Source of the DNA: Candidatus Thorarchaeota archaeon SMTZ1-45
GTDB taxonomy: Archaea > Asgardarchaeota > Thorarchaeia > Thorarchaeales > Thorarchaeaceae
Reading direction: 5' to 3'
Assembly: GCA_001563335.1 (NCBI GenBank)
Contig: LRSL01000037.1
Coordinates: 1 to 53,151 of the forward strand
Length of the DNA stretch: 53,151 bases
The translations under genes were made by a program, and so were the position numbers. The notes under the pieces were generated by a model. That model was not told where the DNA came from. It saw only the letters and a list, made by a program, of their open reading frames with translations, and ran no database searches. This document shows positions 35,833-41,082 of the stretch, in pieces (positions within the stretch are counted from its first letter, which is position 1; each line of letters begins with the position of its first letter).

Positions 35833-36720
35833 TCACGCAACACTATAATCAACTAGTATTGGAAAGATTAGATAACCAAATATCAGCATAAACAGGAGTC
35901 CTAGAGTTTGAGCTATCCACACTCTATTATTCCAGTATCTAACCGTTGCTCCATCAAATGGTTGAAATGGAATCATATTGAATAAACCCAGAAACGCATT
36001 TAGTTGGATACCATATCGAAGCAGAAATCCAATTGCTATAATTGGAATCTTACCCAATGCCAGTATCATAGAAATTATCGCCAATGCTGTTGCAATTGCA
36101 AAATTCGTCAAAGGTCCAGCTAGATTCGATTTTCCATTTTGTTCTACATTGGATGTTCCACTGGTATAGACTACACCTGTGCCAAATATTGGCAATGAGA
36201 AAAGAATCGCCATTGCTGAGAGATAGTATCCCATTGCAGTCATTCTGAACTCTGACCACATACCATAACTCTGTGATACGAATTTATGAGCCATTTCATG
36301 TGCCATGAAGGATCCAAGAAATATAACAATGGTACCAACAATTACCCACAACAATCCCTCGCTGACAAGAAAACCAATTACAGTAATTGCATTGAATATG
36401 CCCAAGGGACTTCCAAAGATGGAGATGCCCACAAGAACTACTAGTACCGAAGCAATTGCAAGATCACGAATCTCAGTAGATGAGAAGCGCTTACGTCTTG
36501 TTCGTTTCTTTTTCAATCTGCGAGTGGGTTGAAATTGGTTTTCATCTGGTTCTTGAACTCTAAATGAATCAGATACCTTTCTTCGTGCATCCTCACGAAC
36601 TTTATGCATTGCAGGACAACCATGACTCTCTGGTAATCTATGTTCTGAACAATAGACGGTGTTACAATAGGGACAAGTAAATCCCAAATCATCAGCACCG
36701 CATAGAGAACATGTTGTCAT
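35833..36720 (-). CDS. AN1-type zinc finger fused to an M50 (site-2) intramembrane metalloprotease
   Basis: CSLC...FTCPYC..VYCSEHRLPESHGC; HEMAH, AGP and FNMIPFQPFDG. Confidence 0.88.
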   Translation of the reverse strand: MTTCSLCGADDLGFTCPYCNTVYCSEHRLPESHGCPAMHKVREDARRKVSDSFRVQEPDENQFQPTRRLKKKRTRRKRFSSTEIRDLAIASVLVVLVGISIFGSPLGIFNAITVIGFLVSEGLLWVIVGTIVIFLGSFMAHEMAHKFVSQSYGMWSEFRMTAMGYYLSAMAILFSLPIFGTGVVYTSGTSNVEQNGKSNLAGPLTNFAIATALAIISMILALGKIPIIAIGFLLRYGIQLNAFLGLFNMIPFQPFDGATVRYWNNRVWIAQTLGLLFMLIFGYLIFPILVDYSVA

Positions 36721-36881
36721 TTTTCCACACTCTACTCTCTATTGATTCAGCGATTGGTCAATATATTCGTATTCCTATTAGCTACAAAAAAAAAAAAATT
36801 CCTTCAATCGCTTGACACAAGGCTTAAGTGAGAGTAAGATTGACCCCGCCACGAGCCGTGAAACACAAGGAGCGGTACTAT

Positions 36882-38270
36882 TTGGATTATGATGTAGCCA
36901 TTGTTGGTAGCGGCCCTGCTGGAATATTTTGTGCTCTCGAATTAATAGAAAAGAAACCATCCTTGAAACTTGTCGTTATTGAACGTGGGGAAAGTATCGA
37001 AAGTCGTACCTGCCCTAACTCTACAGCAGCTGTTGGATGTAAGAAATGCAATCCTTGCAACATTCTTGCAGGATGGGGTGGGGCCGGAGCTTTTTCAGAT
37101 GGTAAACTCACGCACTCGACTCAAGTTGGTGGTTGGCTTGATGAACTAATTGGTGAAGATTATCTGATGGAATTGATAGAATATGTCGATGCCAAGTACC
37201 TCTCATATGGGGCTCCAAAGAAGATCTATGGTTCAATTAATGAAGACATTGAAACCTACAGAAATAAGGCTGCTCTAATCGGAATGCAACTAATACCCCA
37301 ACGCGTCAGACACATGGGTCGTGAGGGTTGCATCGATGTCATGGGTCAGATGTACAATGAGATTTTACAATATGCGGACATCAAATTCAAGACTGAGGCA
37401 AAAGACATCCATGTTAATGGTGGATCTGTTGAAGGTTTGGAAACAAATGGCGGTGATATGATCAATGCTCGCTATGTTGTTGCCGCTCCTGGAAGGGTGG
37501 GAAATGAATGGCTCTCTCGTCAAGCTCAGCGCCTCTCTTTGCATACTGAGAACAATTATGTTGACATGGGAGTCCGTGTTGAGATACCTGCACCTGTAAT
37601 GCAGGAGATTGCGGAATCCCTCTATGAGCCAAAATTAATCTACTATTCTCGCCGTTTTGACGATAAGGTCAGATTATTCTGTTTCAATCCTGGTGGCGTG
37701 GTGACGAGTGAGTACTATGATGAGATTCTTACTGTGAACGGTCAATCATTTGCCAATAAGAAGACAGCTAATTCAAACTTCGCACTCTTAGTTTCAACAA
37801 AGTTTACAGCTCCATTCAAAGAACCAATTGCTTATGGAAAGTACATTGCTCGACTTGCCAACATGTTGGGTGATGGTGTTATTGTTCAAAGGTTGGCTGA
37901 TTTACAGCGAGGAAAAAGAAGTACTGCAGACCGTATTGCTAGGAGTCCAGTGAAGCCAACCCTTCCTAGTGCTTCTCCTGGAGATCTTAGCTTTGCTCTA
38001 CCTTACAGACACCTTAGTTCTATTCTGGAAATGCTTAATGCACTGGATGAACTTTGTCCTGGTGTTGCCAGCTCTGGAACGCTTCTCTATGGGGTTGAAG
38101 TCAAGTTCTATTCCTCTCGCCTTATGCTCAGTAAGCAGCTGGAAACGCAAGTTAAGAACCTATATGCAGCTGGTGATGGTGCTGGAATAACCCGTGGTCT
38201 CATGCAAGCATCAGTATCCGGATTACTCGTAGCTCGTGATATTCTTCAGAAAGAAAGTATTGACCTTTAG
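36882..38270 (+). CDS. FAD-dependent oxidoreductase (uncharacterised dehydrogenase family)
   Basis: IVGSGPAG, GGAGAFSDGKL, GVRVE, FCFNPGG, EVKFYS and GDGAGITRG. TTG 36882 after AAGGAG chosen as start; ORF is open from 36828. Confidence 0.88.
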   Translation: MDYDVAIVGSGPAGIFCALELIEKKPSLKLVVIERGESIESRTCPNSTAAVGCKKCNPCNILAGWGGAGAFSDGKLTHSTQVGGWLDELIGEDYLMELIEYVDAKYLSYGAPKKIYGSINEDIETYRNKAALIGMQLIPQRVRHMGREGCIDVMGQMYNEILQYADIKFKTEAKDIHVNGGSVEGLETNGGDMINARYVVAAPGRVGNEWLSRQAQRLSLHTENNYVDMGVRVEIPAPVMQEIAESLYEPKLIYYSRRFDDKVRLFCFNPGGVVTSEYYDEILTVNGQSFANKKTANSNFALLVSTKFTAPFKEPIAYGKYIARLANMLGDGVIVQRLADLQRGKRSTADRIARSPVKPTLPSASPGDLSFALPYRHLSSILEMLNALDELCPGVASSGTLLYGVEVKFYSSRLMLSKQLETQVKNLYAAGDGAGITRGLMQASVSGLLVARDILQKESIDL

Positions 38271-38304
38271 CTGGTCTAGAAAAACACTGACTACTTCCAA
38301 ACCC

Positions 38305-38335
38305 TTAAATACTAATATACCAGATGGTATATTAG
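38305..38335 (+). promoter_or_regulatory. TATA box plus perfect palindromic operator upstream of hsp20-cdc48
   Basis: TTAAATA (38305-38311) is directly followed by CTAATATACCA-GA-TGGTATATTAG (38312-38335), an 11-bp inverted repeat. Confidence 0.65.
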
Positions 38336-38362
38336 GTACTGGCTGACAAGCCATACAGAAAG

Positions 38363-38410
38363 GGAGCCCCACTGGTGACTCGGAGGGCGGCACCAGCCGC
38401 CCGGGGCTTC
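38363..38410 (+). ncRNA. Candidate structured RNA leader (GC-rich, pseudoknot or switch potential)
   Basis: Stem 38363-38370/38403-38410 encloses hairpin 38385-38391/38396-38402 (loop ACCA); alternative helix 38372-38377/38391-38396. Confidence 0.5.
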
Positions 38411-38432
38411 GTAATGAGAGGTAATTTTCCAA

Positions 38433-38858
38433 ATGATAGATGATGACTTTGAGTCAGTGTTCAAAAGAATGATTGAAGAGTTAATGGGAACTTTTGGAAT
38501 GCCAATGGATAATATAAGATTAAGATCTTGGAATGACTCATTTGTCGATGAACCTCCTGAAGTGCAAATTGATTCCATGAGTGATGAACCGCTAGTTGAG
38601 AAGATTGATCTTGGAGATGGTGTCCTTATTGTAATTGATGGACTGAATGATTTAGAGGATCCCAAAGTAAAAGTTGCAGAATCGACAATTTTTGTTCAGC
38701 CTGGTCTAGGTAAAAAAGAAGTCACGATTGAAGTAGGATTCCCAATTGATCTAGAGAAGTCAACTGCTTCCCATCGAAATGGTGTCATTGAGATTACTGC
38801 TGTTAAGGCTAACAGCAATATCAAAAATATTAGTGATGGATTCTTAAGAATTAAGTAG
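38433..38858 (+). CDS. hsp20: Small heat-shock protein (Hsp20/alpha-crystallin)
   Basis: Acidic N-terminus, EPLVE, AS.RNGVIEI and C-terminal LRI (IxI-like) motif; upstream of cdc48. Confidence 0.8.
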   Translation: MIDDDFESVFKRMIEELMGTFGMPMDNIRLRSWNDSFVDEPPEVQIDSMSDEPLVEKIDLGDGVLIVIDGLNDLEDPKVKVAESTIFVQPGLGKKEVTIEVGFPIDLEKSTASHRNGVIEITAVKANSNIKNISDGFLRIK

Positions 38859-38874: not shown

Positions 38875-41082
38875 ATGAGTGAAGATGTAGTTAGATTGAA
38901 AGTAGCTGCTGCTATGCCAAAGGACCAAGGACGTGGCATTGTACGACTAAACTCTGATGTTAGAAACCACTTGGGACTTCATTCAGGCGATTATGTCCTA
39001 TTGAAAGGTGTAAAAGAAACAATAGCTGTGGCTTGGCCTAGCCTCAAAGAAGATGAAATTCTTGACATGGTGAGAATGGATGGCCTCATCAGAAACAATG
39101 CGGGGATACGTCTTGGTGAAATGGTAGAAGTCAGCAAAGCAGATGTTCCTGAAGCAACAAGAGTTGTAATAGCTCCCAGTCAACCTATGAGATTTCAACC
39201 TGGCTTTGAGGATTATGTGAAACAACAAATCATGAACAAACCAGTAACCCGTGGGGATGTAATTCTTATTTCTGCTATAGGTTCTGGGCTGCAATTTGTT
39301 GTGACAACTGTTTCTCCTCGTAAGCATGGCAGAATCACTTCATCCACAACCCTTGAAGTGATGACGAAACCCACTAAACCTGAGGAACTCACAATACCCC
39401 AAATTACCTATGAAGACATTGGGGGTCTCTCTAAGGAATTACAGAAGATCAGAGAAATGATTGAACTTCCCATGAAGTCTCCAGAACTTTTCAGGAGATT
39501 GGGGATTGCTCCCCCAAAAGGAGTACTCCTTCATGGTCCACCCGGTACCGGTAAGACTCTGATAGCGAAAGCTGTGGCCAATGAATCCGGTGCAAATTTC
39601 AAAGTCATCAATGGACCTGAAATTATGTCGAAATTCTATGGTGAGTCTGAGCAGAAGTTACGTGAAGCTTTTGAGGACGCTGAAAAGAATGCACCTAGCA
39701 TTATCTTCATTGATGAGCTTGACAGTATCGCCCCTAAACGAGCAGAAGTCACTGGAGAGGTTGAGAGACGTGTTGTTGCACAGCTTCTTGCTTTGATGGA
39801 TGGACTCGCTGGAAGAGGCCAAGTAATCGTAATTGGCGCAACAAACCGAGTCGATGATGTTGATGAAGCACTACGAAGACCCGGTCGTTTTGACAGGGAG
39901 ATTGAGATAGGTGTCCCTGATAAAAAAGGTCGGTTGGAGATTCTGCAGATTCATACTCGTGCTATGCCACTTGAAGAGAAGATCGATCTTGAGAAGCTAG
40001 CTGCAATCACTCATGGATTTGTGGGAGCAGATCTAGCTGCATTAGCAAGGGAATCTGCGATGAATGCACTACGGAGAGTTCTACCTCATATTGATCCCGA
40101 TACTGGTGATATCCCCCCTGACATCCTGAGTTCATTGTTTGTGACACAGGATGATTTTGAGTCAGCACTGGCTGGGATTGCTCCATCTGCATTGAGAGAA
40201 GTTCTAGTTGAAAGACCAAACATAAAGTGGGATGATATTGGTGGTCTAAGAGATGTTAAACGACGACTTCGTGCAGCTGTTGAAGGTCCATTGAAATATC
40301 CTGAAGTTTTCGAGGGCATGGGTATTCGAACTCCTCGCGGTGTTCTCCTATTTGGTCCGCCCGGTACTGGAAAAACTCTGTTAGCAAAAGCAGTCGCAAC
40401 TGAGAGTGAGGCTAACTTCATCTCAGTTAGAGGGCCAGAAATATTCAACAAATATGTTGGTGAATCTGAGAAAGCTGTGCGTGAGATCTTTAAGAAAGCA
40501 AGGCAGACTGCCCCGTGTGTAATTTTCTTTGATGAGATTGATGCAATTGTAAGTTCCCGTAGTGAACGCGATGAAACTGGAGTTTCTAAACGCATAGTGA
40601 ACCAGTTCCTTGCAGAATTGGATGGTTTGGAGAATCTTCAAAACGTCCTTGTGATCGGAGCTACAAACCGTGCAGAATTGATTGATCCTGCTATGAAGCG
40701 ACCTGGTCGGTTTGATGAAATACTCTATGTTGACGAGCCAGATGAAGAGGCACGATTAGCAATCCTGAAGATTCATACCAAAAGAATGCCCCTTGCTAAT
40801 GATGTATCACTTGAAGATATTGCTAAGAAAACAAAATGGTATACGGGTGCTGATTTAGAGGGATTGACTCGCATTGCTGCGATGCTTGCCGCTGGGATTA
40901 TTAATATCAAAGATAAAGACGCAAAAGAACCAAAGGTGTCCAAAGTGACCATGGACCACTTTGATATGGCTATGACATTAGTGCCCGCTACACTTGATCA
41001 GAAATCCTCTGAGTACTATAAGAGTCAAGCTGATTTTGTCCTGAAACGTCAACCTGAACGAGGACCTGGTTACATAGCATAA
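38875..41082 (+). CDS. cdc48: Cdc48/p97/VAT family AAA+ ATPase
   Basis: N domain plus two AAA modules (GPPGTGKT twice, FIDELD/FFDEID, RPGRFD twice). Confidence 0.97.

Follow-up and report, generated by a model that had tools for sequence, protein, structure and literature searches.

Bacteria carry RNA thermometers in the leaders of small heat-shock genes, among them ROSE, fourU and the cyanobacterial hsp17 element. Other cis-acting leader RNAs are protein-binding translational operators next to the Shine-Dalgarno sequence, as in thrS and rpsO of E. coli, or the K-turn that archaeal L7Ae binds in its own leader. Small riboswitch aptamers occupy about 35–55 nt, and the consensus of one riboswitch family, ZTP/pfl, resembles GUGACU and CCGCCNGGGC. 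For archaea, the part of the source that was consulted describes heat-shock control at the DNA level, by Phr-type repressors on palindromes; in Pyrococcus furiosus, heat induction is strongest for hsp20 and VAT1, which Phr represses via a palindrome (PMC10746257). In the literature covered, which was available only in part, we found no archaeal heat-shock operon with a natural structured leader, no Asgard-specific cis-regulatory RNA and no description of the leader motif reported here.

We analysed a 53,151-nt stretch of DNA from Candidatus Thorarchaeota archaeon SMTZ1-45 (hereafter the window; contig LRSL01000037.1) together with its relatives. The leader of its small heat-shock protein (sHSP)-cdc48 operon contains a GC-rich element built of an outer helix (P1), a one-sided internal loop (J) and an inner hairpin (P2). 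The RNA motif itself is new; its general type, a cis-acting element in an mRNA leader, is a known one.

With the bacterial sHSP thermometers this element shares a structured sHSP 5′ leader, action in cis and a position near the ribosome-binding site. It differs from them in that the Shine-Dalgarno sequence and AUG lie outside the conserved helices, in that these helices are GC-rich and predicted to be stable to 80 °C, and in its invariant single-stranded hexamer and archaeal host; no Rfam thermometer model matched it at E ≤ 10. Translational operators offer another likeness, namely a stable helix that shows a conserved loop a few nucleotides before the ribosome-binding site, at a single locus and with a constant spacing to the start codon. 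The Thorarchaeal element lacks the signature of the L7Ae K-turn, a 3-nt bulge and tandem G·A pairs, since its internal loop has just 0–2 nt on the 3′ side. Small riboswitch aptamers are comparable in size, in covarying helices and in conserved junction nucleotides; against ZTP/pfl in particular, no Rfam model, ZTP included, matched the 116-nt query at E ≤ 10, the neighbouring genes have no link to purines or folate, and a pseudoknot is unsupported. An initial resemblance to ZTP/pfl was dropped, as no model matched. The Phr-controlled hsp20 and cdc48/VAT unit of P. furiosus has the same gene pair and a palindromic promoter site, but its control is described as transcriptional, each gene has a separate start and the consulted part of the report mentions no structured leader RNA, whereas the Thorarchaeal pair shares one leader (PMC10746257).

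Gene context of the leader

The element lies in the spacer 38271–38432, between a gene for a FAD-dependent oxidoreductase and a 141-codon ORF (Table 1). The protein encoded by this ORF gave no match on its own in a search against Pfam, and its match to the archaeal Hsp20 family of NCBIfam (NF041800, E = 2.1e-5) fell below the family cut-off. A profile of 23 orthologues matched PDB 4rzk (E = 1.1e-10) and HSP16.5 (E = 2.4e-5), and three of these 23 orthologues match Pfam HSP20. By these matches the gene directly 3′ of the element is a divergent small heat-shock protein of the Hsp20/ACD type, with orthologues that share an N-terminus of the form MIDDDF(D/E)K. The preliminary description had placed proteostasis genes downstream of the element, and the sHSP gene, followed by cdc48, agrees with this. 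The two genes are 16 nt apart in the window and have one shared leader; cdc48 also follows the sHSP gene directly in 42 of 45 other loci, and the remaining three end at contig ends.

Upstream, the nearest gene is the FAD oxidoreductase in 28 loci, including the window, and a protease of the AN1/M50 type in 14 loci. In the window, this gene is located at 35833–36720 on the − strand, divergent from the sHSP-cdc48 unit, and its product joins an AN1 zinc finger to a membrane protease of the M50-like kind. No RNA-binding candidates were found among the conserved neighbours, as neither the AN1/M50 protease nor the FAD oxidoreductase has a known RNA-binding domain, and a search of the window with ARAGORN returned no tRNA or tmRNA.

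Table 1. Features of the sHSP-cdc48 locus (positions in the window).
Feature	Position	Strand	Remark
FAD-dependent oxidoreductase gene	36828–38270	+	Upstream neighbour in the window
TATA-like box TTAAATA, sHSP-cdc48 promoter	38305–38311	+	Read from the sequence
Palindrome TAATATACC-N4-GGTATATTA, putative DNA operator	38313–38334	.	Right after the TATA box
P0 hairpin UGGCU-GACA-AGCCA, 5′-proximal	38340–38353	+	Present in the minimum-free-energy fold
Purine-rich linker UACAGAAAG	38354–38362	+	Near-invariant in the genus, loosely kept across genera
P1 5′ strand GGAGCCCC	38363–38370	+	Pairs with 38403–38410
J, one-sided internal loop ACUGGUGACUCGGA	38371–38384	+	Core GGUGACUC at 38374–38381
P2 hairpin GGGCGGC-ACCA-GCCGCCC	38385–38402	+	38385–38391 with 38396–38402
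P1 3′ strand GGGGCUUC	38403–38410	+	Pairs with 38363–38370
Shine-Dalgarno-like GAGGU	38418–38422	+	7 nt past P1; outside the helices
Divergent small heat-shock protein (sHSP) gene, 141 aa	38433–38858	+	Profile and NCBIfam matches; ATG at 38433
cdc48, AAA+ ATPase (CDC48_N, CDC48_2, two AAA domains)	38875–41082	+	Second gene of the operon

A stable fold with covarying helices

The GC content is 0.66–0.68 in 50-nt windows over 38350–38424, compared with 0.30–0.36 in the flanking windows (38275–38349 and 38425–38474), in agreement with the GC-rich island in an AT-rich spacer that had been noticed earlier. The stems, hairpins, GAGGU sequence and complementary hexamers of that description were likewise all recovered from the sequence (GGCU-GACA-AGCC at 38341–38352, CUGGUG at 38372–38377 and CACCAG at 38391–38396). 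On the + strand, the segment 38330–38435 folds at −42.3 kcal/mol (z = −3.15), a value reached by none of 200 shuffles, and its minimum fold includes the small 5′ hairpin, the outer stem and the inner hairpin. The − strand gives z = −0.72, with 40 of 200 shuffles folding as well.

The orthologous spacer was recovered in 22 of 24 same-genus genomes. A MAFFT alignment has a conserved order of TATA box, one or two palindromic sites, leader and ORF start. When an alignment of 24 sequences of the genus (A2) was scored for a structure of P0, P1, P2 and a mini-hairpin in the internal loop, 90.8% of cells were paired and 10 of 27 pairs showed two-sided changes; none of 500 column shuffles scored as high, and slid controls had 33–50% of cells paired. 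G·U pairs, such as those in GGGUGAC/GUCGUCC, occur only on the + strand. In a wider alignment of 46 realigned model hits across 16 genera (A3), 91.6% of cells were paired and 15 of 19 pairs had two-sided changes, a level that 0 of 500 shuffles reached. A3 is biased toward the structure because it was fitted to the model, a bias from which the genus-only alignment is free, and the shuffle statistics overstate the support because related genomes are not independent. The proposal of a structured, conserved RNA in the hsp20-cdc48 leader, for which covariation in relatives had been named as a check, is thus upheld both by a + strand fold that beats shuffles and by the covariation of P1 and P2.

Both helices contribute to this signal. 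Eight of the nine P1 pairs in A3 are changed on both sides, as seen in the variants GGAGCCCC/GGGGCUUC, GAAGUCCC/GGGACUUC, GGGAGCC/GGCUCCC and GAGGCCC/GGGGCCUC. P2 is 96.9% paired, with five of its seven pairs changed on both sides; its stem, GGGCGG(N)/(N)CCGCCC, is unusually conserved in sequence and shows occasional compensatory changes, and its apical loop (about 3–6 nt past the closing pair) varies freely. Judged from the aligned sequences, P1 and P2 are real helices, kept by compensatory changes. Across genera, P1 measures 8–9 bp and P2 7 bp, in a core of about 50 nt of which about 20 nt are conserved. The 5′-side loop between the two helices comprises 11–18 nt and has a near-fixed centre, RGUGACUC, with UGACUC intact in 43 of 46 homologues and flanks that vary in length and sequence; on the 3′ side, 0–2 nt separate P2 from the 3′ strand of P1.

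A scan of all column pairs outside the helices revealed no further covariation clearly above the level of shared ancestry. The mini-hairpin YGG-UGAC-UCR within the loop was set aside as unproven: it is 79% paired, and two of its three pairs are unpaired in 13–14 of the 46 sequences. The pseudoknot, or pair of exclusive folds, that the preliminary description had drawn from the complementarity of CACCAG and CUGGUG did not hold up, as the exact 6-nt match occurs in one of 46 sequences, that of the window, whereas in the other 45 the complementarity does not exceed 4 nt and its partners shift; we therefore regard it as a chance feature. Outside the core, conservation is narrower. The sequence and register of P0 are genus-specific, with the hairpin kept within the genus while its register shifts (UGGCU/AGCCA versus AGGUGY/GCACCU), and no conservation of P0 was found across genera; the linker ACAGAAAGG is genus-specific too.

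The conserved pairs cover only 38363–38410, and the GAGGU sequence is 7 nt beyond them, as had been recognised. In silico, P1 and P2 are still paired at 80 °C with probabilities of 0.84 and 0.97. The Shine-Dalgarno region itself (GAGAG, 38416–38420) can form a weak hairpin with UUUUC (38425–38429) before the start codon, with a predicted probability that drops from 0.39 at 37 °C to 0.09 at 70 °C. The U-tract 3′ of the Shine-Dalgarno site that this hairpin uses is present in most sequences of the genus and in none of the other genera; from the folding model, the hairpin could be a small genus-specific thermometer of the fourU kind.

A motif restricted to Thorarchaeia

The window's assembly (G000; 3.54 Mb, 119 contigs, 42% GC) contains one full copy of the element and one partial paralogue. 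A covariance model built from A2 (R1) had matches in 62 of 87 genomes of the order and in 14 of 17 genera, with one strong match per matched genome, and it also weakly detected the partial paralogue in a few genomes of the genus. Rebuilt from A3, the model (R2) matched 63 of 87 genomes of the class and 16 of 17 genera, with a single weak match among the 17 genomes of genus g25 and none in the one genome of the second family of the class. In an even sample of the phylum, the motif was present in 23 of 26 genomes of the family, and one weak match (20 bits, E = 0.015) was obtained from 124 genomes of 26 other families. An exact-pattern scan over 185,579 species genomes (596 Gb) returned at least 121 stretches, of which 80 loci were fetched. 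Two of these gave full-length R2 matches (72.1 and 51.8 bits), both in Candidatus Thorarchaeota, and the rest were chance matches in GC-rich bacteria with at most 27.6 bits. On this distribution, the element is a lineage-specific structured RNA motif restricted to Thorarchaeia.

One of the pattern loci, in a Terriglobales MAG (L205 368–441), also forms a helix resembling P1 and reaches 26.1 bits along the whole model; chance is the probable explanation, because the pattern had pre-selected the loop and P2 across 596 Gb.

The position of the motif is as constant as its structure. The model match ends 15–22 nt 5′ of the sHSP start codon in 46 of 46 loci, always before the same gene, and in homologues a GGAGG-type Shine-Dalgarno sequence stands between motif and start codon, with P1 ending 6–8 nt before it. 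With one full copy in the window's genome, and elsewhere one strong match each before the same gene, the element does not behave as a dispersed repeat, a possibility that had been raised at the outset. The exception is g25, in which the orthologous sHSP operon and the operator-like sequence are kept and the leader, of about 110 nt, lacks the motif. Instead, the g25 leader (L142 1–180, L143 1380–1500) has another long hairpin, CCUAGGCAUC...GAUGCCUAGG, between operator-like CCTAGG sites; since the orthologous gene has a different leader hairpin there, the motif appears dispensable or replaceable in this genus.

Searches of Rfam 15 with 1.2 kb and with 116 nt gave no credible match, the best hits being unrelated (E = 0.065–9.7) and far below gathering scores, which agrees with the earlier statement that no known family was recognised. 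Several other candidates were considered and rejected. C/D box sRNAs have a C box (RUGAUGA), a D box (CUGA) and a terminal stem. A SNORD115 match at 38405–38482 (24.5 bits versus a gathering score of 39; E = 0.065) overlaps the Shine-Dalgarno sequence and the first codons and is spurious, and UGAUGA is present in only a few sequences of the genus, most of which have GGUGA. A K-turn bound by L7Ae is at odds with the 0–2 nt, without GA, from P2 to the 3′ strand of P1 and with the 5′ loop of 11–18 nt. A complementarity of UGACUC to GAGUCA early in the coding region is not maintained: the latter hexamer becomes GAGACA in three sequences of the genus and is absent in other genera, and UGACUC stays. 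An upstream ORF at AUGGGAGG has no conservation outside the genus, and attenuation at the oligo-U stretch UAAUUUUCC was dropped as the U-tract is absent in other genera.

Promoter, operator sites and a partial second copy

A TATA-like heptamer lies 29–59 nt 5′ of the model match in 41 of 46 loci; of the five loci without it, three can be seen by eye to have TTATATG variants, and in one the upstream sequence extends for only 16 nt. At the TATA-to-start spacing usual in archaea, transcription is predicted to start near 38334–38336, at the foot of P0, and it is from this TATA position that we infer the presence of the element in the mRNA. The TAATATACC-N4-GGTATATTA palindrome is homologous to CCAAATGGTCCCTAG sites of other genera. 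Operator-like sites between TATA and motif take the form TACCAAATGGTATCTTAG in this genus, in one or two copies, and most other genera have two GGTCCCTAG-type sites about 25 nt apart. By analogy with the palindrome used by Phr in P. furiosus, the DNA sites at the sHSP-cdc48 promoter would be a heat-shock operator, with the RNA motif as a separate, added layer.

A near-identical combination of TATA box and palindrome (CTTAAATGCTAAGATACCAATTGGTATCTTAG) is present on another contig of the assembly (G000:C58:63904–63915), about 80 nt 5′ of a 44-codon ORF, and may mark a second member of the same DNA regulon.

The partial paralogue of the leader (G000:C97:4221–4300; L002 1494–1613) is situated in the spacer between a grpE-dnaK-dnaJ operon on the − strand and a Sir2-like gene on the + strand. 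On the + strand this copy reads CUGACAA..UACAGAAAGG and, 30–45 nt later, CCCC-UU-GGUGACUCGGGCG (CCCC-NN-GGUGACUCGGGCG overall); it lacks P2 and the 3′ strand of P1, and it faces away from grpE. It was found at 11 loci, all within this genus. The sHSP and grpE-side loci share subclade variants (CUGACAA versus GACUAGCA), and among the differences between them in the P0 block G-to-A changes predominate (12 of 32). The consensus fold of the grpE-side copy is weak (−4.63 kcal/mol, with a covariation term of 0.05) and establishes no structure, and an Rfam search with this copy gave no credible match. The second copy may reflect a shared binding factor, gene conversion or pairing of the two leaders.

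Possible functions of the element

We favour, tentatively and at somewhat less than an even chance, the view that the element is a structured 5′ part of the sHSP-cdc48 heat-shock mRNA that serves as a displayed docking site for a trans-acting factor near the ribosome-binding site. The rigid P1 and P2 helices would display the invariant UGACUC loop to this factor, most likely a protein, and the factor, bound at a fixed short distance from the ribosome-binding site, would alter either the access of the 30S subunit or the lifetime of the mRNA. Such a mechanism would superimpose post-transcriptional control on that exerted by the putative DNA operators of the sHSP-cdc48 operon, and helices so rich in G+C would let the site stay folded in heat stress. 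The observation that UGACUC is fixed while its flanks vary fits sequence-specific recognition and not a plain stabilising hairpin. A displayed recognition site also agrees with the fixed position, the rigid GC-rich helices, an exposed hexamer that does not vary and the occurrence of one locus per genome. Against a docking site stand the 17 genomes of g25 with their other leader hairpin and the conserved neighbour genes, which offer no binding partner; in addition, a small-ligand pocket would be another way to account for a conserved P2 sequence next to an invariant loop.

It is unlikely, in our estimate, that the element is an Asgard-only sensor RNA in which the UGACUC loop and the GGGCGG/CCGCCC helix directly sense a proteotoxic signal and gate the translation of sHSP and Cdc48; the signal in that case could be a small molecule or ion, or else a chaperone or unfoldase whose free pool is depleted by unfolded proteins. 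A riboswitch or ion sensor in the strict sense, that is, a P1-loop-P2 aptamer that binds a stress-signalling small molecule or ion and in which stabilisation of P1 frees or blocks the Shine-Dalgarno sequence, would find about 20 conserved nucleotides within covarying helices and a core of about 50 nt. By eye, the P1 3′ strand CUUC(C) could alternatively pair with the GGAGG 6–8 nt downstream. This pairing, however, would have 4–5 bp against the 8 bp of a GC-rich P1 and lacks conservation, covariation gave no sign of tertiary contacts or a pseudoknot, and no expression platform is visible. With no Rfam class matched, and with one locus per genome that precedes chaperone genes rather than metabolic or transport genes, we consider a riboswitch quite improbable. 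We give a similarly small chance to a role in mRNA stability or processing, in which the 5′ structure would block 5′-3′ decay or the UGACUC loop would be cut by an endoribonuclease under stress. The structure does lie at or near the predicted 5′ end, the invariant hexamer is single-stranded between rigid helices, and g25 has swapped the motif for another long hairpin, as if any stable structure could partly serve; yet a purely protective hairpin needs neither an invariant loop nor a conserved P2 sequence, and there is no nuclease candidate.

Melting of the leader by heat, with release of the ribosome-binding site, was suggested by the preliminary description and would recall bacterial ROSE and fourU elements, which occupy the same position in sHSP leaders. 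The weak Shine-Dalgarno/U-tract hairpin of the genus does open with temperature in the predictions, and the mean predicted pairing of the Shine-Dalgarno sequence over 46 leaders is 0.65 at 10 °C and drops to 0.42 at 65 °C. This Shine-Dalgarno pairing is nevertheless of moderate strength and varies from leader to leader, the U-tract hairpin is confined to the genus, and an invariant loop would be unexpected in a thermal zipper. As the conserved helices exclude the Shine-Dalgarno sequence and AUG and are predicted in silico to be no less than 84% paired even at 80 °C, the GC-rich element is very unlikely to be a thermometer, and that part of the earlier proposal is not sustained. An element acting as DNA (a transcription-factor site or cruciform), or a separate small RNA gene in place of a cis-acting mRNA leader, might be considered on the grounds that the motif directly adjoins operator sites and that a second copy, in opposite orientation, is found next to another chaperone operon. 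The G·U pairs and the folding asymmetry point instead to a + strand RNA, and the 15–22 nt to the start codon, which hold the Shine-Dalgarno sequence, leave no room for a second promoter; the chance of either is accordingly slim. Even less credible is a direct pairing of the two mRNAs, in which a grpE leader, if transcribed through the blocks, would be complementary to the sHSP leader. The opposite-strand copies of two blocks (CUGACAA..UACAGAAAGG and CCCC-NN-GGUGACUCGG) upstream of grpE at 11 loci, the joint changes of both loci between subclades and the G-to-A differences, which would yield G·U pairs in the duplex, can be cited for it. The second copy, however, is confined to one genus and the motif is class-wide, the blocks are buried in P0 and P1 of the sHSP leader, and the grpE transcript would have to run through the blocks. 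Gene conversion or a shared binding factor explains the joint changes equally well, and the G-to-A counts amount to about three fixed positions in related genomes.

Implications

The element probably adds RNA-level control to a heat-shock operon. If it were a sensor, it would be the first natural RNA-level control of heat shock or proteostasis known in archaea. Small (a core of about 50 nt), well delimited by its covariation and found with one operon only, the motif is a concrete RNA that can be synthesised for tests, and it could enter RNA family databases as a marker that improves the annotation of Thorarchaeota genomes. It makes testable whether Asgard archaea have a post-transcriptional layer of proteostasis, what binds the UGACUC loop, and by what means these relatives of eukaryotes bring ribosomes to structured leaders.
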